Of a stretch of 27,227 nucleotides of DNA, positions 3,619 to 14,995 are shown one piece after another. The DNA is from Methanobacteriota archaeon. GTDB taxonomy: Archaea > JAADCQ01 > Methanopyri > Methanopyrales > Methanopyraceae. The position numbers were made by a program, and so were the translations under genes. Every line of letters starts with the position of its first letter. The first letter of the stretch is position 1. Location: NCBI GenBank assembly GCA_027064305.1, contig JAMOPY010000049.1, positions 1 through 27,227 on the forward strand, read 5' to 3'. The notes beneath the pieces are model-generated. The model did no database searches. It saw only the letters and a list, made by a program, of their open reading frames with translations, and had not been told where the DNA came from.

Positions 3619-4782
3619 TTACTTCAGCGCTCTCAGCCGGACCTCCGGCTCCAGCGTCCTCGGCTCGGCCGCGACGATCGCCGCGCCCTTGGCGACCACC
3701 GTCATCGGGTCGTCCGCCAGCTCGGCCGGGATGTCCGTCTCCTCCTCGATGCGCGCCTGCATGCCCGGCATCAGGGACGTGCCGCCCACCATGACCGTGT
3801 TGTCGTACACGCCCGGGATCAGCTCCGCGGGCAGCCGGTCCAGGATCCTTCGGATGGCGCGGATGATCTCCTGCACGACGGGCTCGGCGGCCTTGGCCAC
3901 CAGCTCCGAGTCGATCGTGATCTCCTTGGGCTTGTTCGTCTCGACGTCCTTGCCCACGACCTCGATCTCCTTGTCCTCGAAGTCCTCGGTCTCGGAGAAC
4001 ACGCGACCCACCTCGATCTTGGCCCGCTCGGCCTCGTGGATGCCGATCCGGACCCCGTACTCCTCCTCGACGAGCTCGACGATGTTCTGGTCGATGTCGT
4101 CGCCACCCACGCGCATGGTCTCCTGGTCCGTGATGCCGCCCAGCGAGATGACCGCGATGTCGGTGGATCCGGCGCCGATGTCGATCACCATCGTGCCCGT
4201 GGGCTCGGCGATGGGTAGGCCGGCGCCGATGGCCGCCGCGAGGGCCTCCTGGATGATGATCACGTTGTCCTCCTCGATCCCGACCTCGACGGTCGCCTCC
4301 TTGATCGCGCGGCGCTCCACCTCGGAGGCGTCACCCGGGACGCCCACGGCGACCCGCTCGATCTCCTCCGGGTTGTTGTTCGAACCGACCTCGATCGCGT
4401 ACTGGACGATGAACTTGGCGTACTCCATGGACTCGATGACTCCGTGCCGGAGGGGTCGGACGGCCACGATGTCCTCCGGGGTGCGGCCGAGCATCTTGCG
4501 GGCTTCCTCACCGATGGCCAGCACCTTGTTCGTGCCCTTCTTGACGGCCACCACGGAGGGGAACTGTTTGACCTGGAACTCCTCCTCCGAGGGGCGCGCC
4601 ACCACCGTGTTCATGGTGCCCAGGTCGATGCCGAGGGCCGCGTAATCGCCGTAGATCTCGACCTCTTCCTCCCTCTCCAACTCCTCGGAGATGGACTCCT
4701 CCTCGCGCTCCTCGGTCTCCTCGCCGCGCTCCTCCTCTTCCTCCTCACCCTCCTCGCGCTTCTTCCTCCTCCAGAACGGCAA
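3619..4782 (-). CDS. mreB: MreB/Mbl-like actin-family ATPase (rod shape-determining protein)
   Basis: Phosphate-1 GIDLGTMNT, RPLRHGVI, VERRAI, connect-1 EALAAAIGAGLP, phosphate-2 MVIDIGAGSTD, GGDDID, AERAKIEVG, adenosine VGGTSL, connect-2 VAKGA. Acidic N-terminal extension. Confidence 0.93.
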   Translation of the reverse strand: MPFWRRKKREEGEEEEEERGEETEEREEESISEELEREEEVEIYGDYAALGIDLGTMNTVVARPSEEEFQVKQFPSVVAVKKGTNKVLAIGEEARKMLGRTPEDIVAVRPLRHGVIESMEYAKFIVQYAIEVGSNNNPEEIERVAVGVPGDASEVERRAIKEATVEVGIEEDNVIIIQEALAAAIGAGLPIAEPTGTMVIDIGAGSTDIAVISLGGITDQETMRVGGDDIDQNIVELVEEEYGVRIGIHEAERAKIEVGRVFSETEDFEDKEIEVVGKDVETNKPKEITIDSELVAKAAEPVVQEIIRAIRRILDRLPAELIPGVYDNTVMVGGTSLMPGMQARIEEETDIPAELADDPMTVVAKGAAIVAAEPRTLEPEVRLRALK

Positions 4783-4794
4783 GGTCGAGCTCCC

Positions 4795-5415
4795 CTACCC
4801 CTCCTCCTCGGTGCCCGGGATCTCGTGGACGTAAACGCCACGATCGTTCGCGATCTTTCGAAACTCCTCGGGATCCTCCACCTGCAGGACCATAATGCTG
4901 AACGTCTCCTCCTCGACCCCCAAAAACACGCTTATAATGTTCCTAATGGGGCGAGGCATCACGTCGAAGAGGATCATCGAGGTCTCGATGAACGCGGGCC
5001 CTCTCCTCCTCCTGTTAACCTTAATCTTCATCCGGCTCCTGGCCCGCGACATCACGCTCTTGAGGACGGAGTCCGGCCCGGCAACGACGTAATTCCCATC
5101 ACCTTCCTCGAAAACCAGGGACAGCAGCTCGGACTTGGTCGCCACGCGGCTGATTAACGAGGTGATCTCGGAGGTGGACCGTATTAGGGTGACGCCGTAC
5201 CTCCACACGGTAACCCCGTACTTGGTCTTAACCTCACGATTATCCACGATTTCAAATTTTGAAAATCTCATCGTCTCATAGAGGGCCTCTTCGATATCCT
5301 CAGGATCCCCTAGTATGGCGCAGTACGAGTTCATTTCCTCGTCCATTTTCTCATATGATACGGCGGCGGACCTTAGCAGTTTAACTCTGGTTTCCGGGTC
5401 CTCCGTAGCCTTCAA
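4795..5415 (-). CDS. Hypothetical protein (206 aa) between oapC and mreB
   Basis: Fills the gap in the operon, 4-bp overlap with oapC, GGAGGGG RBS before TTG. No recognisable motif. Low GC. Confidence 0.75.
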   Translation of the reverse strand: MKATEDPETRVKLLRSAAVSYEKMDEEMNSYCAILGDPEDIEEALYETMRFSKFEIVDNREVKTKYGVTVWRYGVTLIRSTSEITSLISRVATKSELLSLVFEEGDGNYVVAGPDSVLKSVMSRARSRMKIKVNRRRRGPAFIETSMILFDVMPRPIRNIISVFLGVEEETFSIMVLQVEDPEEFRKIANDRGVYVHEIPGTEEEG

Positions 5416-7255: not shown

Positions 7256-7948
7256 ATGCTGGCGCCCGGCTGGCACCGGTTCGTGCTGCCGCCCGCGGTG
7301 CTCGGTGCGATCACCGCCCCCGTGTGCAAGCCCGCCTCCGCGCTGTTCCTGGCCGCGGCCGGCTTCCTGGCCTTCTTCTTCCGGAACCCCGATCGGGAGC
7401 CGCCGAGCGACCCCAGGTTGATGGTCTCCGCCGCCGACGGTCGGCTCCTGGGTAGGGTCATGCACGTGGGTCCCGGGGACGAGGAGGTGGAGTCCTACCT
7501 GGACGAGCCGGTGATGGTCTCCGTGTTCATGTCCCCGCTGGACGTGCACGTGAACCGGGCGCCGTTCGACGGCGTCGTGCGGGAGGTGAGCCGGGTCCGG
7601 GGGCGCACCGTGCCCGCGTTCAGGTCCTCCTCGGCGACGGAGAATCACCGGGCGATCCTGCTGTTCGAGGGCAGGGTGCCGTTCCTTGTGCGGCTGGTGG
7701 TGGGAGCGGTCGCGCGTCGGATCGACCTGTACGTGGAGGAGGGAGACCGGGTGCGGCGCGGTCAGCCGATAGGGATGATAAGACTGGGTTCCCGGGTGGA
7801 CGTGGCCGTTCCGCGGGCTCACGTGGACCGGGTCCTGGTCTCGGTGGGTGACCGGGTCAGGGCGGGTGAGACGCCGATAATCAGGGTAAAAGAGGGGAGG
7901 AGGAGTGGACGAGCGGATCGAGAGGTGGAAGATCACCAGCCTGCTTAA
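7256..7948 (+). CDS. psd: Archaetidylserine/phosphatidylserine decarboxylase proenzyme
   Basis: FFFRNPDR, VSAADG, SVFMSPLDVHVNRAP, ENHR, GAVARRI, self-cleavage motif GMIRLGSRVD, VRAGET. Confidence 0.93.
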   Translation: MLAPGWHRFVLPPAVLGAITAPVCKPASALFLAAAGFLAFFFRNPDREPPSDPRLMVSAADGRLLGRVMHVGPGDEEVESYLDEPVMVSVFMSPLDVHVNRAPFDGVVREVSRVRGRTVPAFRSSSATENHRAILLFEGRVPFLVRLVVGAVARRIDLYVEEGDRVRRGQPIGMIRLGSRVDVAVPRAHVDRVLVSVGDRVRAGETPIIRVKEGRRSGRADREVEDHQPA

Positions 7949-8642
7949 CGCCCCGTCGGTGGTGTCCACGCTCAACGTGGTGTTCGGCTCCATCTCCGTG
8001 CTCGCGTCCCTGTCCGGGTGGCCCGGGCTCTCCTCCCGGATGATCCTGCTCTCCTTCATCGCCGACTCGATCGACGGGTTCGTGGCGCGGAGGAAGCGCA
8101 AGACGTCCGAGTTCGGTAAGCAGCTGGACTCGCTCGCGGACGTGATCTCGTTCGCCGTGGCCCCGGCCTCGCTGCTCCTGGTCGGGAAGATGGCGCCCGC
8201 GCTCGTGGCCTACCCGCTGGCCGTGGTCATGGTGTGCTGCGGGGCCCTCCGCCTGGCCCGCTTTAACGCGATGTGCGCCGAGGGTTACTCCCCGGACGAG
8301 TACTACTTGGGACTGCCGGTGCCCTGGGTGGGCACCGCCACCTCGTGCCTGTACTTCCTGACCACGGACCTGCCCTCGCGGGTCTGGCTGGTGGTCAACC
8401 CGGTGGTGCTGGCGGGCGCGTCGGCGCTCATGGTGTCCACCGTTCGGTTCCCGAGCTTTAAGCGCCCTCACCCGGCGGTGATCACCATCGGTGGCGCCTC
8501 GATGCTGGCCCTCCTGTTCAGTCCCCTGTTCTGCCCGGGCTGGTTAAGGGGGAAGTTGGAGGTGGCCTCCTCCGGAATGATCCTGGGAATTCTCTCGTAC
8601 TACGCGCTGTCGGGGGTGATAGGGTGCGTGCGGCGGTGGTAG
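7905..8642 (+). CDS. pssA: Archaetidylserine synthase (CDP-alcohol phosphatidyltransferase, PssA subclass II)
   Basis: DSIDGFVAR...SEFGKQLDSLADVISFAVAPA, GALRLARFN, YLGLPVP, LMVSTVRFPSFK. Multiple TM helices. Confidence 0.93.
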   Translation: MDERIERWKITSLLNAPSVVSTLNVVFGSISVLASLSGWPGLSSRMILLSFIADSIDGFVARRKRKTSEFGKQLDSLADVISFAVAPASLLLVGKMAPALVAYPLAVVMVCCGALRLARFNAMCAEGYSPDEYYLGLPVPWVGTATSCLYFLTTDLPSRVWLVVNPVVLAGASALMVSTVRFPSFKRPHPAVITIGGASMLALLFSPLFCPGWLRGKLEVASSGMILGILSYYALSGVIGCVRRW

Positions 8643-9721
8643 CGTCGACGGCGGCCCTGGAGATCCCGGAGGAGCGTCGTCACGCCATCGTGGGCGCGCT
8701 GGTGCTGGGCCTGGTCATCCTGGGGTCCGCCGTCGGCGCCTGGTACTTCCTGTACTACCGACCGTACATGGAACAGCTGCAGAAGCTCCGGCAGCAGAAG
8801 CTCGCGGAGCTGAACAGGTACTTCACGGGGCCGCTGGCCACGTCCCCGATGCGGGCGAAGCTGCAGCAGCAGATCCTGTCCGCGGAGACGATAGAGCAGC
8901 TGCAGGCCATCGACGTGGTGGGAGCGGCCACGGTGGAGTGGCAGAAGTACCAGATCTCGCAGATCAAGAGGAACCAGAAGAACGGCCGGGTCGAGCTGAT
9001 CACGCCCCAAGGGCCGCAGCTGATGTCGGTCAAGGACGCGATCGCGAAGGTGAAGTCCATGTCCGCGGACGATCTGATGAAACTGGTGGTCAAGAGGCCG
9101 GAGACCGTGCTGATCGCCGTCTGGGCGGACCCCAACAAGACCGGGGCCATCCGGGTCGGGGACAGGGTCACGCTGTCGACCGTGGACTGGGTGATCAAGG
9201 CGGCGCTGCACAAGCGGGGTGAGACCAAGGTTCCCAGGGAGCTGCTGAAGGGACCGAACCAAATCAGCGGTGGGATCGTGCGGTACATACTGCTGGTCCG
9301 AGGCGGTTTGGCGGGATTTAACACGAAGATCAACCTGGAGTCGGCCGCCAAGGCGGCGGAGCTGTACCGATCCGGCAGCGTCGACATCGCGGCCCGCAAG
9401 ATGGTCGTGCCGGCCGCGGCGCTCGGCCTGGTCGGGAGAGGAGGGGCCGGCGGGGCCGCCGGCGGCGGAGGAACCCTACAGCGGGCTCAGGAACCCCTGG
9501 TCGGCATCGTCGATCTGTCGGATTTCATCAAGGCGATGGCTCTGGCGAAGGCGAAGAGGGGAGGGTACGTCAAGCAGCTCATGTCGCTGGAGCAGCGGGA
9601 GGGGATCCGCGCGTGGGACAAGCTGATCGTGGTCGTGGAGATCCCCAAGGATGCCGTGACTCCGAAGATCCTCATAGCGGCCGCGGTCCGGGGAGGCTTC
9701 TGGATCATGCCGGAGCGGTGA
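8624..9721 (+). CDS. Single-pass membrane protein, DUF515-like
   Basis: N-terminal TM (IVGALVLGLVILGSAVGAWYFLYY), then RPY...KLAELNRYFTGPLA helical segment resembling DUF515 of methanogens/Thermococcales. RBS GGGGGTGA upstream. Confidence 0.65.
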   Translation: MRAAVVASTAALEIPEERRHAIVGALVLGLVILGSAVGAWYFLYYRPYMEQLQKLRQQKLAELNRYFTGPLATSPMRAKLQQQILSAETIEQLQAIDVVGAATVEWQKYQISQIKRNQKNGRVELITPQGPQLMSVKDAIAKVKSMSADDLMKLVVKRPETVLIAVWADPNKTGAIRVGDRVTLSTVDWVIKAALHKRGETKVPRELLKGPNQISGGIVRYILLVRGGLAGFNTKINLESAAKAAELYRSGSVDIAARKMVVPAAALGLVGRGGAGGAAGGGGTLQRAQEPLVGIVDLSDFIKAMALAKAKRGGYVKQLMSLEQREGIRAWDKLIVVVEIPKDAVTPKILIAAAVRGGFWIMPER

Positions 9722-9736
9722 AACCCCTTAAAAAAT
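9720..9736 (+). promoter_or_regulatory. Putative archaeal BRE/TATA promoter for the surface protein-sortase pair
   Basis: GAAACCCC-TTAAAAAA in a 51-bp intergenic gap, TATA-like box at 9728-9735, about 37 bp upstream of TTG 9773, which has a GGGGG RBS. Confidence 0.6.
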
Positions 9737-9772
9737 GAGGCACCAAAACGCTGGACTGGGTCTACGGGGGAA

Positions 9773-10750
9773 TTGAAGTTGCGACACCTGGGATCGATCG
9801 TGCCGGCGCTGGTGGTCGGCGTGGCGGTCCTAGCCGGGGTCTGGGTGGCGGAGGAGTCGGGACAGGTGAAGCTCGGTCAGATGCCCACCGGATCCCCCGC
9901 CGCCGGGGCTCAGGCGGCCGGTAGCGCGGCCTCAGGGGCCGCGAGGACCGCCGCCGGGGCGGCCCAGTCCGTGGGAGCGGGAGGGGCCGGTGCCGGCGGT
10001 GGCGACCCGTTCGTGGTCAGCGAGGCGATCATCAGGGTCCAGGCGGTCGGCAAGGGGGCCAAGAAGGTCAGCAAGGTCGAGGAGATACCCAACTCCAGAG
10101 TGCGGGAGTGCAAGGTGTCGGGTGATCGGGCGGAGGCGGTCATCGAGGCGCACGACGTTCCCATCAGCGGGCTGCCGGTGAGCGTGAACCCGGGATGGCC
10201 GTTCAAGATGAGCGACTGCCGGTACGAGAGGATCGAGGTCACGTTCAAGCTCAAGGCCAACACGGACAACGCCGAGGAAACGGACTTCGCGGGGCTCATC
10301 GCGCTGAGCGATGGTCGGGTGACGTCGGCCGACCCGCGCCCGGACCGCACGGAGGACGGGACCGCGATCTGGAGGGTGGCCATCCGGGACGGCAAGTTCG
10401 TCATCAACGGCCGTGAGGACGGGGAGTTCCCGCGGTTCCGGTACGTGCTGGAGTACGGTCGGGGCGCCGGGGCCGGTGGAGTCGGTGGAACCGGTGGTGC
10501 CGTCGGTGGTGGTCAGGCCGGTGGTGGAGCCGGGGCCGGTGGTCCGGGAGCCGGGGGCGGCGCGGGTGCCCCCGGACCGGGGGCCGGTGCCGGCGGTGGC
10601 GCCGGTGGGGTCAAGATGGTGAGGGGAGGCGCCGGTACCGGGATGCCGGTGGGCAAGTACCGGACCGGTGAGTCGCTGTTCCTGATCACGGCGGCCGTCA
10701 TCGGGGCGCTGGTGGGAGCGTACCTGGTGTACAGGGGCCTCCGGCGGTGA
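9773..10750 (+). CDS. Secreted Gly/Ala-rich cell-surface protein with C-terminal sortase-type sorting signal
   Basis: N-terminal signal/TM, beta-rich central domain of about 145 aa, Gly-rich linker, then KYRTG + hydrophobic segment (SLFLITAAVIGALVGAYLVY) + RGLRR tail. Stop overlaps the sortase start. Confidence 0.75.
   Translation: MKLRHLGSIVPALVVGVAVLAGVWVAEESGQVKLGQMPTGSPAAGAQAAGSAASGAARTAAGAAQSVGAGGAGAGGGDPFVVSEAIIRVQAVGKGAKKVSKVEEIPNSRVRECKVSGDRAEAVIEAHDVPISGLPVSVNPGWPFKMSDCRYERIEVTFKLKANTDNAEETDFAGLIALSDGRVTSADPRPDRTEDGTAIWRVAIRDGKFVINGREDGEFPRFRYVLEYGRGAGAGGVGGTGGAVGGGQAGGGAGAGGPGAGGGAGAPGPGAGAGGGAGGVKMVRGGAGTGMPVGKYRTGESLFLITAAVIGALVGAYLVYRGLRR
10457..10642 (+). repeat. Low-complexity Gly/Ala codon repeat (GGGGCCGGT/GCCGGTGG-type units) encoding a GAGAGG linker
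   Basis: Translated GRGAGAGGVGGTGGAVGGGQAGGGAGAGGPGAGGGAGAPGPGAGAGGGAGG. Imperfect short repeats, no spacers. Confidence 0.8.
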
Positions 10751-11232
10751 GGCTCCGGTACCTGGTCCCGGGGCTGCTGCTTCTGGCCCCATCCACCGTT
10801 TATTTGGGCCAGCTGGCGGCGAGGGAGCTGGCGTATCGGCTGTACCACGGTTCCGTGTCCGTGCCCGGGTGCGAGCTGGTTATCCCGAAGCTGCACCTGC
10901 GGGAGCCGATCAACGCGATCTCGCCGGACTATGGGGTGTACTACGATCCGGAGACGCCGGAGCCCGGGGAGCGCGGGATCACGATCCTGTACGGGCACCG
11001 GACGCTGTTCGGGTCCCCGTTCAGGCGGTTAAACGAGCTGGAGCGGGGCGACGAGGTGATCGTGTACTGGTTCGGGCGGAAGTACGTGTACCGGGTGTAC
11101 GGGAAGGAGGTGGTGAGCCCGGACGCGCGGGTGGACCCGTACGGGGTGGGCCGGGACGAGCTCTGGCTGGTCACGTGCGCGCCCTTGTGGTCGTCGAGCG
11201 AGCGGTTGGTGGTGAAGTGCGCCCGGGGTTAG
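10747..11232 (+). CDS. Sortase (class D/E-like)
   Basis: N-terminal hydrophobic anchor, LVIPKL, ILYGHRT...PFRRLNELERGD, YVYRVY, LWLVTC, ERLVV. His/Cys/Arg catalytic triad intact. Confidence 0.92.
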   Translation: MRLRYLVPGLLLLAPSTVYLGQLAARELAYRLYHGSVSVPGCELVIPKLHLREPINAISPDYGVYYDPETPEPGERGITILYGHRTLFGSPFRRLNELERGDEVIVYWFGRKYVYRVYGKEVVSPDARVDPYGVGRDELWLVTCAPLWSSSERLVVKCARG

Positions 11233-13481
11233 GCGGCGTCGCGCAGGATCTTGCGGACGAGGCGCTCGAGGACCTTGTTCCGGTGGGCCTCGGCGAAGGA
11301 GATGGAACCGGCGGTCTCGTGGCCTCCCCCGTCGATGGCGGCCTCCGGGAGCTCCTCCCGCAGCTCCTCGACGATCTCGTTGAGGTTGATGCCCAGGTTC
11401 TCGGTGGCGCGGATCACGGCGAAGTCGGGCCCGTACGCGATGGTAACGACCTTGGCGTCCTCACCCTCTTCCTCCACCTTGAGGTCGTGGACGAGGCCGC
11501 AGGTCTTGCCGGGGCCCGGGTACTCGAACTTGCGGGCGTAGCGCTCGACGTCCACCGTGACGACCTTGATGCCGTTGGACTCGTACTCCTTCACGCCCGA
11601 GAGGGCGGCCTGGAGCTGTCGCTCGCAGGCGCGCTTGTGCTGCTCGTACAGGTTCTCGACGAGCCGGCGGTGTCGGACGTCGTTCCCGGTCGTGCCGAGG
11701 ACGTCGTTCATGAGGTGACGGCCCGGGGTGTGACGGAGCTGGAAGGCCTGGTAGTCCACGCTGGCGGCGATCTTCTGCAGCCATTCGCGGTCGTATCCGG
11801 ACTCCTCCGCGATCTCCAGGTACTGTTCGGCCTCCTTGGACTCGGCGTGGTCGCCGACGCAGGCGACGGCGGGCAGGTGGCGGATGCGGTCCTCGACGTC
11901 CGGGTTGATGAGCCGGGCGATCTCGGTGGCGAGGACGCCGGCCGGGATGTTCTTGCCGTCCCCGTCCGCGGCGTAGGGGTTGACGTGCACGTCCACGTGG
12001 TCGTCGATGGGGAACTTTCGCAGCCCGTCCGCGCTCTCGCCGGTGGGTTCGCCGGGGTAGTGGTGGTCGATGACGATCACGTCGACCCCGTAGGCGCGCA
12101 TCTCCTCGATGGCCGGGACGTCCTCCTCCGTGCAGCCGATGTCCAGGAGGATGAGGAGCGGGACCTGGTGGCCGTAACGGTGGACGTCCTCGAGCGCGTG
12201 GTTGAGGTCCCGGGACGCGTCCTCCATCGTGTAGATGGGGGCCTTGTTCGGGAAGCGCTTGTAGAAGTGGTACTCCGCCTCGGGGTCGGGGTTGTTCTCG
12301 CGGAGGATGGGCAGTATGGCCTCCTCGAGGGCGATGCCCCCGGAGATTCCGTCGGCGTCGGCGTGGTGTCGGATCAGGATGGGGCGGCCCTCGAGCACGG
12401 CCCGCTTGATCATTCTGGCGGCCTCGCGCATCCGCGGCCAGAGCCGCTCCAGGACCTCGCTCTCAACCATCGGGGTGAGGTCCTCGGGCGGCTCGGCCTC
12501 GCGCTCGAGGGCCTCGTCGATCGCGCGCTTGATCTTCACCTTCTCCGTGCCGATGAGCTTCTCCATGTCCAGGATCTCGACCTGCAGCTGGCCGTCGTGG
12601 GTGGTGACCTCGCCGACCACCCGCACGTAGTCGCCCGCCTCGATGTCCGGGTAGGCCCGGATGCCCGGCCCCTCGAAGGCGGCCATCCAGATGCTGCCGG
12701 TCTCGTCGCGGAGGGTGAAGACGGTGGGGCCGGGCGTCTGCTGGACGTGGATGATCTTGCCCTTGAGTAGGACGGTCTCGCCGACCTTGGACTCGTCGAT
12801 GTCGCGCACGTACGTGCGCTCGAGGTCCTTCTCCACGACCTCCTCCTCGTACTTCTCGGGCCGCGGGTCGATCCCCTCGATCGTGAAGTCGATCTCGCCC
12901 TCCTCGGGCCGCACGTCGATGGCCTTCACGACGACCTCCTGGTCGATGGAGAAGTCCTGCGGCTCCTTGTCGCCCATGTCGCGCTTGTGGAGGAGCCCGA
13001 GGGTGCGGTCGTTCAGCTGGATGAACACGCCGTACTTCTCCACGCGGGCGACGCGGCCCTTGTACAGCTCGCCCACCTCGACGTCCTCGTACCCGCAGGC
13101 TGGGGACAGGACCTTGACCTTGGGGCGCTTCTTCCGGCGGATCTCCTTGATCTTCTCCCGGCACTCCTCGCACAGGTCCTCCTCGGCGTTCGGGTCCAGC
13201 TCCTTGCCGCACTCCCGGCAGACGACGATGTGGCCGGTGCCCCCGCACCGGTCGCACTCCTCGTAGACCGGGATCACGCCCTTGCCCTGGCACTTGGGGC
13301 ACGGAACCTCGCGGGACCCGGCCAGGTCGTACCCTTCGATCGCGTGCTGGGAGGCGCCCTTGAAGTGCTCGCTGATGTCCACGTCCTCCACGTAGCCGGT
13401 ACCCTGGCACTCGGGGCACTCGCGCTCTCCGGCCTTGATCTTACCCTTTCCATCGCACTTCGGGCACTTCTTCCTCGGCAA
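11229..13481 (-). CDS. Archaea-specific RecJ-like DHH exonuclease with DnaJ-type Zn fingers, S1 and OB domains (HAN/COG1107-like)
   Basis: Four CxxCxGxG repeats, S1 (VEKYGVFIQL...GLLH), OB fold (QQTPGPTVFTLRDETG), RHHADADG, LLDIG, VIDHH, DHHA1 GGGHETAG. Confidence 0.9.
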   Translation of the reverse strand: MPRKKCPKCDGKGKIKAGERECPECQGTGYVEDVDISEHFKGASQHAIEGYDLAGSREVPCPKCQGKGVIPVYEECDRCGGTGHIVVCRECGKELDPNAEEDLCEECREKIKEIRRKKRPKVKVLSPACGYEDVEVGELYKGRVARVEKYGVFIQLNDRTLGLLHKRDMGDKEPQDFSIDQEVVVKAIDVRPEEGEIDFTIEGIDPRPEKYEEEVVEKDLERTYVRDIDESKVGETVLLKGKIIHVQQTPGPTVFTLRDETGSIWMAAFEGPGIRAYPDIEAGDYVRVVGEVTTHDGQLQVEILDMEKLIGTEKVKIKRAIDEALEREAEPPEDLTPMVESEVLERLWPRMREAARMIKRAVLEGRPILIRHHADADGISGGIALEEAILPILRENNPDPEAEYHFYKRFPNKAPIYTMEDASRDLNHALEDVHRYGHQVPLLILLDIGCTEEDVPAIEEMRAYGVDVIVIDHHYPGEPTGESADGLRKFPIDDHVDVHVNPYAADGDGKNIPAGVLATEIARLINPDVEDRIRHLPAVACVGDHAESKEAEQYLEIAEESGYDREWLQKIAASVDYQAFQLRHTPGRHLMNDVLGTTGNDVRHRRLVENLYEQHKRACERQLQAALSGVKEYESNGIKVVTVDVERYARKFEYPGPGKTCGLVHDLKVEEEGEDAKVVTIAYGPDFAVIRATENLGINLNEIVEELREELPEAAIDGGGHETAGSISFAEAHRNKVLERLVRKILRDAA

Positions 13482-13499: not shown

Positions 13500-14687
13500 T
13501 CATGAGGAGTAGGCGGTGACGACCTTCTCGACGGCCCGGACCACGTCCTCAAGGTCCTCGCGGGAGAGCCCGGGGTGCACGGGGATCGACAGGACGGTAC
13601 GGGCCGCGAGCTCGGAGTTGGGGAGGCTCGCGGTGTGGTACCCGCGCTTGAGGTACACGGGCTGCCGGTGGAGGGGCCTGGGGTAGTGGACGGCGCAGTC
13701 GACGCCCTCCGCCCGGAGGGCCTCCGCGAACTCGTCCCGGGTGCACTCGAGCGCGTCCGGGTCGAGGCGGATGGTGAACTGGTGGTAAACGTGTTTTGCC
13801 CAGGACCGCTCGCGGGGGAGCCGGATCTCGGGCTCTAGGTCGCTCAGCTCCCGGATGTAGAACCGGGCGTTCTTCCGGCGGCGCCGGTTGAGCTCGTCCA
13901 GCCGTTTGAGCTGCTCCAGCCCGATCGCCGCGGCGATGTCGGTCATCCGGTAGTTGTAGCCCAGCTCCACGTGATCGTACCGCTCGCGCTCCCCGTGGGA
14001 GCGGAGCATCGCGGCGGCCTCCGCCAGGTCCTCGTCGTCCGTCGTGATCGCCCCGCCCTCGCCCGTGGTCATGTTCTTCGTCGGGTAGAAGCTGAAGCAG
14101 CCCGCGTCGCCCAGGGCGCCGACCCGGTCCCCGCGGTACTCGGCCCCGTGCGCCTGGGCCGCGTCCTCGATCACGAGGAGGTCGTACTCCTCCGCGAGCT
14201 CGAGGATGGGTCGCATGTCGGCCGGGTGACCGTACAGGTGCACGGGGATCACGGCGACGCGGCGCGGGGTGAGCCGCCGCTCCCGCTCCAGGCTCCGGAG
14301 GAGCTCCTCCAGGGAGGCGGGGTCCAGGCAGTACGTCTCCAGGTCGATGTCGACGAACGCGACCTCGGCCCCGGCGTGCAGGGCGACGTTGGCCGTCGCG
14401 ATAAACGTAAAAGACGGCACGATCACGAGGTCGCCCGCGCCGATTCCGGCCGCTTCCAGCGCCAGCTGAAGGGCGGTCGTGCCCGAGCTCGTGGCCACGC
14501 AGTGCTCCGTCCCCACGTACTCGGCGAAGCGCCGCTCGAACTCCTCCACGCGCGGTCCCTGCGCCAGCTGTCCGGAGCGCAGCACCTCCTCCACGGCCCG
14601 GATCTCCTCGTCGCCGATCACCGGCTGCGCGATCGGGATACGCTCCTCCCGCACCGGCTTACCGCCCTCGATGGCCAGCCTGGACAA
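13500..14687 (-). CDS. DegT/DnrJ/EryC1/StrS PLP-dependent sugar aminotransferase
   Basis: SSGTTAL, PSFTFIAT, PVHLYG, IEDAAQAHGA, FSFYPTKNMTTGEGG, GYNYRM. Start moved to TTG 14687 (MSRLAIEGG), which removes the overlap with rpl35ae. Confidence 0.92.
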   Translation of the reverse strand: MSRLAIEGGKPVREERIPIAQPVIGDEEIRAVEEVLRSGQLAQGPRVEEFERRFAEYVGTEHCVATSSGTTALQLALEAAGIGAGDLVIVPSFTFIATANVALHAGAEVAFVDIDLETYCLDPASLEELLRSLERERRLTPRRVAVIPVHLYGHPADMRPILELAEEYDLLVIEDAAQAHGAEYRGDRVGALGDAGCFSFYPTKNMTTGEGGAITTDDEDLAEAAAMLRSHGERERYDHVELGYNYRMTDIAAAIGLEQLKRLDELNRRRRKNARFYIRELSDLEPEIRLPRERSWAKHVYHQFTIRLDPDALECTRDEFAEALRAEGVDCAVHYPRPLHRQPVYLKRGYHTASLPNSELAARTVLSIPVHPGLSREDLEDVVRAVEKVVTAYSS

Positions 14688-14713
14688 CCCGCGGCCCCCT
14701 GGGGGTTGGCCCG

Positions 14714-14995
14714 ATGTCGGAGGTGAAGGTGAAGCGCGGCGTGATCGTGAACTACCGAATGGGCAGGCACACGCAGGACCCACGGCAGTGCATAATAGAG
14801 TTTCAGGGTGTGGACAGCAAGTCCGAGGCGGCGCGGCTGATCGGCAAGGAGGTGGTCTGGAGGCACCCGGAGACGGGTACGGAGATCCGGGGCAAGATCG
14901 TGGACACGCACGGGAACAACGGGGCCGTGCGGGCCCGGTTCGAGCGCGGCCTGCCGGGCCAGGCCCTCGGGACCGAGGTGGAGCTGCGCGACTAG
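14714..14995 (+). CDS. rpl35ae: 50S ribosomal protein L35Ae (eL33)
   Basis: GVIVNYRMGRHTQ...GVDSKSEAARLIGKEVVW...GKIVDTHGNNGAVRARFERGLPGQALG. Confidence 0.95.
   Translation: MSEVKVKRGVIVNYRMGRHTQDPRQCIIEFQGVDSKSEAARLIGKEVVWRHPETGTEIRGKIVDTHGNNGAVRARFERGLPGQALGTEVELRD

Follow-up and report, generated by a model that had tools for sequence, protein, structure and literature searches.

We describe here a pair of adjacent genes of an archaeal genome that likely form a dedicated sortase-substrate pair, in which classical sortase chemistry would act on a sorting signal that is not of the LPxTG type. The pair lies on a stretch of 27,227 nucleotides, in the following called the window, which is contig C49 of a genome assembly of 1.21 Mb in 50 contigs with 69.8% G+C and a completeness of 89%. 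The closest relatives of the window proteins are labelled Methanopyrus sp. in the source databases. The first gene of the pair (9773..10750) encodes the putative substrate, a protein of 325 amino acids, and the second (10747..11232) a sortase of 161 amino acids. Together with a DUF515 gene upstream of the substrate gene they form three head-to-tail genes on the forward strand. The reading is carried by the gene architecture, the intact sortase, a tag common to unrelated proteins and the co-occurrence of tag and sortase, all of which can be read from the sequences.

The substrate starts with a signal peptide or membrane helix in residues 1-27 (9773..9853), with K2 and R4 ahead of a hydrophobic run that is modelled as a helix from residue 6 to 27, and this N-terminal segment is presumably cleaved off. 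An Ala/Gly-rich linker separates the hydrophobic run from the folded core, which is an all-beta domain of residues 78-230 (10004..10462) and forms a block with a predicted local distance difference test score (pLDDT) of 81-94 in the AlphaFold2 model built on the alignment of six orthologues. The linkers are disordered in this model. The core is followed by a Gly-rich spacer of 63 amino acids (residues 231-293, 10463..10651, pLDDT 29-39), the length of which differs among the orthologues. The putative sorting motif GKYRTG occupies residues 294-299 (10652..10669), of which KYRTG corresponds to residues 295-299 (10655-10669). It is directly followed by the 21-residue hydrophobic segment ESLFLITAAVIGALVGAYLVY and by RGLRR. 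This C-terminal membrane helix (residues 300-320; helix 300-324 in the model) and the basic tail (residues 321-325) span 10670..10747. The stop codon TGA of the substrate gene (10748-10750) overlaps the GTG start of the sortase gene (10747) within GTGA, so that the two genes share four nucleotides. An initial annotation, made from the sequence alone, had given this architecture and this overlap, and each part of it was found in its place.

A motif, a hydrophobic helix and a basic tail at the extreme C-terminus make up the layout of an LPXTG anchor, and of the L-P-x-T-G pentapeptide itself only T-G is in common with the substrate tail. It had been claimed that scans for LPxTG would miss the motif, and standard searches of this kind do miss it. 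At E<=10 the tail has no match to any NCBIfam model, including the curated anchor and -CTERM models.

The sortase is anchored at its N-terminus (about residues 5-25) and is the only match of the sortase family (Pfam: PF04203) in the genome, with 83.4 bits against a cut-off of 26.6. Its catalytic residues, described before as intact, are His84 (10996-10998), Cys144 (11176-11178) and Arg153 (11203-11205), and the surrounding motifs GHR (83-85), TCAP (143-146) and SERL (151-154) correspond in the alignment to those around the catalytic His, Cys and Arg of 8t28, a solved class C sortase. All three residues are invariant in the six Methanopyrus orthologues. The enzyme scores 40.6 with TIGR01076 (cut-off 39.35), 53.2 bits with the class E model NF033747 and 53.7 bits with the class C (pilus) model NF033745, the latter two below their cut-off of 160, and 25.5 bits with TIGR03784 of the class GN 'marine' sortases (cut-off 158). 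By curated scores it falls in no sortase class; a Methanopyrus protein with 72% identity is named 'class E sortase' at NCBI. Two further cysteines, which are not catalytic, at residues 42 and 158 (10870-10872 and 11218-11220), are also invariant in the six Methanopyrus sortases and may form a disulfide that stabilises the extracellular enzyme of a hyperthermophile.

A genome-wide scan of C-terminal tails, which had been proposed in order to derive the motif, was run on stop-to-stop open reading frames (ORFs) of at least 80 amino acids that end in an uncharged helix with a basic residue after it. The scan gave 23 tails in this genome, many of them in spurious frames of the GC-rich sequence. Two of the 23 have Y-R-T-G directly before the helix, namely the window substrate and a secreted SNase-like protein. 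Y[KR]TG is found 21 times in the 1.95 million residues of the ORFs of at least 50 amino acids of this genome. A chance origin of the tag is excluded, because 0.003 occurrences are expected before 23 helix-basic tails and two were seen. The SNase-like protein (Pfam: PF00565, E 3.6e-8), encoded on contig C31, is unrelated to the window substrate and ends with VVIGRYRTG, a helix and ARRS. Orthologues with G-x-Y-[KR]-T-G were found in the Methanopyrus genomes G003, G002 and G001, and the SNase-like protein has the same tag in four species. The tagged SNase-like gene of G001 is split over two overlapping frames (L055/L057, G001:C1:~1419211-1419907), possibly through a frameshift or an error of sequencing.

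The pair of substrate and sortase genes is kept in all six Methanopyrus genomes and the two genes adjoin each other in each of them. The tail motif of the substrate orthologues is GKYRTGES in three genomes (G000, G005 and G003), GQYKTGES in G001, GQYKAGES in G002 and GTYKTGVS in G004; residues G294, Y296 and G299 are invariant and T298 is kept in five of the six. Taking both protein families together, ten tails have the two Gly and the Tyr invariant and the Thr in nine. A profile of these ten tails was searched against the six Methanopyrus genomes. In G004 it found two small secreted proteins ending with AGKYKTGVP and a 453-amino-acid protein ending with AGSYVTGVP, and in G002 an Ig-repeat protein ending with IGKYVTGIP as well as a weaker tail, VGEHSTGTP (E 0.008). 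Since these further tails extend G-x-Y-[KR]-[T/A]-G, we use G-x-Y-x-T-G as the working motif, with a repertoire of about two to four proteins per genome. The non-canonical signal proposed in the initial annotation is thus supported by the presence of the tag on unrelated proteins, but the motif is G-x-Y-x-T-G rather than KYRTG. G002 also has a 1640-amino-acid ORF (L076, G002:C1:~1130720-1130800) that ends with RLPPTGVN, a helix and HRSVR and matches the profile with E 0.05; a canonical LPxTG tail and G-x-Y-x-T-G tails are found side by side in this genome.

Such pairs are also found in a second group of archaea. PF04203 was detected in 21 of the 301 sampled archaeal genomes, all of which are Methanopyrus or belong to the class of genome G007 (families f3, f32 and f33), and in none of the 280 sampled genomes outside these two groups. 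From the literature, the class of G007 is presumably Methanobacteria. The statement that archaeal sortases are largely limited to methanogens with a pseudomurein wall agrees with this distribution. With the sortase orthologue of G031 as query, a sortase was found in 109 of the 121 genomes and in 24 of the 25 genera of the class, and in none of the 12 genomes of the genus g44.

We looked at the neighbourhood of the 30 best-scoring sortase loci of this class, which come from 12 genera. In 29 of them a secreted protein of about 310 amino acids is encoded immediately upstream of the sortase on the same strand, with the tail VP[TSG]-x-x-T-G-[VAL]-P-[YFW]-helix-Y-[AT]-[KR]. In 20 aligned full-length proteins of this family the T and the G never vary, and the prolines on either side show a conservation of at least 90%. 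The exception is the locus of G041; this genome encodes the same protein elsewhere, with the tail TVPTKETGAP, and has a second, unrelated protein of 204 amino acids ending with TIPTKKTGVP. The proposal that the gene next to the sortase encodes its substrate is strengthened by this positional equivalent in a second class.

A second tail profile, made from 14 tails of the class of G007, scored E 2e-21 and E 1e-15 in the sortase-bearing genomes G045 and G066. It found further proteins ending with VPMQxTG-[TVAI]-P, helix and basic residues: G045 gave five more (E<=0.004), G066 two weak ones and G086 a 2417-amino-acid ORF. All three genomes have two or more sortase paralogues. The VPMQxTG proteins are otherwise unrelated to each other (L091, L094 and L096-L099 in G045, L092 and L095 in G066, L090 in G086), and VPMQxTG is apparently a second, general sorting tag, distinct from the VPTxxTG tag on the protein encoded beside the sortase. 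Five of the sortase-less g44 genomes were searched as well: none had a homologue of the substrate profile, and the best match of the tail profile had E 0.33 with the profile positions only partly covered.

Several observations weigh against a dedicated pair of sortase and substrate. Conservation of TG in orthologues had been set beforehand as one of the tests on which the idea could fail, and while the Gly is kept in six of six substrates, the Thr is replaced by Ala (YKAG) in G002. In G004, the C-terminus of the SNase-like orthologue differs and lacks the tag. In the class of G007 the pairing of sortase and substrate is not universal, because the sortase has no adjoining substrate gene in seven of seven further loci of lower-scoring genera (three of g40 and one each of g47, g49, g53 and g50) and the 14-tail profile detected no tail in two g40 genomes. 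In six of these seven loci DUF515 lies immediately before the sortase gene, and in G089 the CDP-alcohol transferase gene precedes it; no homologue was detected with the substrate profile in the four g40 and g47 genomes tested. Moreover, a comparison of the Methanopyrus and the class-of-G007 substrates with hhalign gave a probability of 62% for the whole proteins and 6.7% for the core only, over the same segment, so that the two families may be homologues or only positional equivalents. Finally, a protein of the archaeosortase family (Pfam: PF09721) is matched in five of the five Methanopyrus genomes searched, above the cut-off in four of them.

The models of the two substrate families both resemble beta-sandwiches, and for neither was a convincing relative found among solved structures. 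The core domain of the window substrate had no match at E<=0.001 in a Foldseek search of the PDB, and in the wide fold search with VIA-align its best match was AdoMetDC with Z 6.1, for the class-of-G007 substrate a mu-homology domain with Z 7.2, both within the range for unrelated models. The match lists of the two families overlap in many generic beta-sandwich entries, which we did not count as evidence of homology. The window substrate has no Pfam or NCBIfam family match, its best feature score of 0.75 in the ESM Atlas is uninformative, and a word-based homologue search with it found only three Methanopyrus clusters. The exhaustive search of the core-domain profile against 1.84 billion representatives found three Methanopyrus representatives and, apart from these, only the 432-amino-acid repeat protein P0006. 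Four tandem repeats of P0006 match profile positions 102-142 with E 1.8e-9, probably owing to a common beta-hairpin motif and not to a relationship.

If substrate and sortase form a dedicated pair, the following mechanism can be proposed. The 325-amino-acid protein would be exported by the Sec pathway and, through the C-terminal helix and the RGLRR tail, stay fixed in the membrane, which would place G-K-Y-R-T-G at the outer face of the membrane. There the membrane-anchored sortase, translated together with its substrate, would cut after Thr298 by means of Cys144, His84 and Arg153 and form a thioester intermediate. The scissile bond T298|G299 is predicted by analogy with LPxT|G. The substrate would then be passed to an amine, most likely a free amino group of a pseudomurein stem peptide, or alternatively a lysine of another envelope protein. 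The Gly-rich spacer would be long enough for the beta domain to extend through the wall or above it. Besides this substrate, the sortase would serve the few other G-x-Y-x-T-G proteins, including the SNase-like nuclease. The acceptor is the weakest link of this mechanism, and pseudomurein is the obvious candidate because archaeal sortases track this wall type.

It is unlikely, though more probable than the other rival explanations, that the sortase does act on the tag and transfers the substrate to a protein, either head-to-tail into a fibre in the style of class C pili or onto a lysine of DUF515. Class C is among the best NCBIfam and PDB matches of the sortase (53.7 bits; 8t28 with E 5e-9), but the score is far under the cut-off of 160 and level with that of class E. 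Pilin-like beta domains occur among the weak fold matches of the substrates with Z 4-4.7, which is under the level expected for unrelated models. A YPKN-type pilin motif was not seen by eye in the alignments of both substrate families, in which K114 (Methanopyrus) and K57 and K67 (class of G007) are invariant. In favour of a protein acceptor are also the adjacency of DUF515 and sortase, which is kept even without a substrate gene, and a link of both to pilus or surface proteins in the literature. However, DUF515 must have a role independent of the sortase, since it is present in all 12 genomes of the sortase-less g44 and in the control Methanocaldococcus jannaschii.

Another enzyme could recognise the tail. 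The initial annotation had not considered the archaeosortase family, of which a protease rather than the sortase might process the substrate, the adjacency of the sortase gene being incidental or reflecting another link. The genome of the window (G000) encodes an exosortase/archaeosortase-family protein of 164 amino acids without assigned subtype on contig C29 (L087:1703-2197, reverse strand; TIGR04178 40.8 bits). No subtype model reaches its cut-off and no cognate signal is known for it. Enzymes of this family process C-terminal helix signals, and the tripartite layout is likewise that of archaeosortase signals, as cited in PMC3387779. Against this, the genes of substrate and sortase overlap in the window and are direct neighbours in each of the six genomes, and in the complete genomes G001 and G002 the archaeosortase gene is more than 200 kb away from every tagged gene found. 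Furthermore, 19 of the 29 class-of-G007 genomes with a sortase-adjacent TG substrate have no match to the archaeosortase family (E<=0.01); of the remaining matches two are below the cut-off with in-frame stops and eight are real and above it. The substrate tail matches no curated -CTERM model, and the tail of the SNase-like protein matches only MYXO-CTERM with E 0.48. Taken together, we regard processing by an archaeosortase as very improbable.

Least probable is that the C-terminal helix is a permanent, uncleaved anchor and the motif has a part in folding, in glycosylation or in packing at the surface of the membrane. Within the genus, conservation of the helix and tail is unusually high for a signal that is removed, with YLVYRGL invariant or nearly so, but the motif is also found on unrelated proteins with differing helix sequences, sortases of both classes have an invariant TG beside them, and the tails are absent from the five g44 genomes where the sortase is absent.

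Beyond the dedicated pair, we tentatively propose a wider picture, which is possible but which we would not yet count as probable. All archaea with a pseudomurein wall might share an ancestral sortase pathway with a non-LPxTG signal (G-x-Y-x-T-G for Methanopyrus, P-x-x-x-T-G for the class of G007), encoded by a module of DUF515, beta-domain protein and sortase amid cell-shape genes (MreB, coiled-coil). Its product might be the first protein known to be covalently joined to pseudomurein, and possibly a structural element of the wall or between wall and membrane rather than an adhesin. The idea that the sortase is the missing transpeptidase that cross-links pseudomurein itself was rejected, because the sortase is found in 0 of the 12 genomes of g44, by inference a member of the pseudomurein-walled class.

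The best-known relative is the Gram positive system of sortase A and LPXTG proteins (Pfam: PF04203, anchor model TIGR01167). Both have a motif ending with TG before a helix and a basic tail, a Cys transpeptidase that is anchored in the membrane and has the His, Cys and Arg residues, and a host with a thick glycan wall that is cross-linked by peptides. In contrast to it, the archaeal signals have no Leu-Pro and read G-x-Y-[KR]-T-G in Methanopyrus and VPxxxTG in the class of G007, the wall is pseudomurein and the enzyme is minimal with 161 amino acids. The class E sortases of Actinobacteria (NF033747), the substrate motif of which is LAxTG, are comparable in being single-copy, housekeeping-type enzymes with a motif that departs from LP at the first positions; they differ in the motif, and the window enzyme reaches only a third of the cut-off score of their model. 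Similar to the class GN 'marine' sortases (TIGR03784) is the combination of one sortase with one adjacent substrate and a lineage-specific variant motif, whereas the host is here an archaeon and there are further, unlinked substrates.

Boekhorst is said to have reported an LPxTG protein in M. kandleri in 2005. Sortase genes of these methanogen genomes were counted in PMC2812497 and PMC3087415, and LPxTG scans gave only one or two candidates per genome in the former. A cluster C of pseudomurein-specific genes, consisting of an aminotransferase, an MreB-like protein, a coiled-coil protein, 'RcpC/CpaB' and 'Sortase E', is listed in the available sections of PMC11915815 (mSystems 2025), where it was judged unrelated to pseudomurein. 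The window appears to be this cluster C, because MreB, DUF515, sortase and a DegT aminotransferase are all found in it. The substrate gene and the sorting signal are not part of the description of cluster C in these sections of the main text. In the literature on archaeal and methanogen sortases and on pseudomurein, to the extent that its text was accessible, no description of this signal or of a dedicated substrate was found. Archaeal sortases and the cluster of DUF515 and sortase have already been reported, and the signal and the dedicated substrate appear to be undescribed in these accessible texts.

We know of no protein that is covalently attached to pseudomurein, nor of an enzyme or signal for such an attachment. 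Nor are the enzymes known that act on this wall outside the membrane; PMC10117817 found no transpeptidase homologues. With its enzyme, the peptide VGKYRTGES and a natural substrate that is conserved, the locus makes covalent attachment to pseudomurein directly testable. From the motifs G-x-Y-x-T-G, VPTxxTG and VPMQxTG one could predict which surface proteins of methanogens are anchored to the wall, and gut and rumen relatives may be included, as such a tail is found on the 2417-amino-acid ORF of G086. Moreover, a minimal thermostable sortase of 161 amino acids with a new specificity may be of use for protein ligation.

The gene upstream of the pair (8624..9721, forward strand) encodes a DUF515 membrane protein of 365 amino acids with an N-terminal helix (Pfam: PF04415, E 5.3e-12, 45.4 bits). 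DUF515 is a conserved neighbour: in Methanopyrus it lies 5' of the substrate gene, in the class of G007 upstream of either the substrate or the sortase gene. This refines the initial annotation, which had described a unit of two genes, as DUF515 belongs to the conserved sortase module. DUF515 itself is more widespread than the sortase, with 119 of the 121 genomes of the class of G007, including g44, besides the Methanocaldococcus jannaschii control.

The two genes had also been given a TATA-like box of their own. The sequence TTAAAAAA (9728..9735, forward strand) is indeed present in the 51-nucleotide gap between DUF515 and the substrate gene, but it has counterparts only in the three closest of the six orthologous loci. 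In the other three the substrate gene is located close behind DUF515 without a TATA-like box. A ribosome-binding-like site GGGGGA (9766..9771, forward strand) is found upstream of the substrate gene in all six Methanopyrus loci, with a spacing to the start of 6-8 nucleotides in the other loci. Since the site is conserved in the six loci with this usual spacing, the sequence suggests that the true start of the substrate is the second TTG, at 9779.

Further upstream of the module, MreB (Pfam: PF06723, E 1.6e-101) is encoded on the reverse strand at 3619-4782, adjoined by an ORF without family on the same strand (4795-5415), and a phosphatidylserine decarboxylase with CDP-alcohol phosphatidyltransferase on the forward strand at 7256-8642. 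The gene order CDP-alcohol transferase, DUF515 and sortase is found again in the class of G007 (L080-L086). On the other side, a DegT aminotransferase is encoded on the reverse strand at 13500-14783. Between it and the sortase lies the gene of a 750-amino-acid protein with DnaJ-type zinc finger, S1, OB, DHH and DHHA1 domains (11229-13481, reverse strand), which is convergent with the sortase gene and overlaps it by four nucleotides at the 3' ends. In the class of G007, a protein of about 120 amino acids with RERAIFEGAISMGALFH is encoded directly 3' of the sortase (L081:3027-3392, L082:3182-3532, L016/L017).

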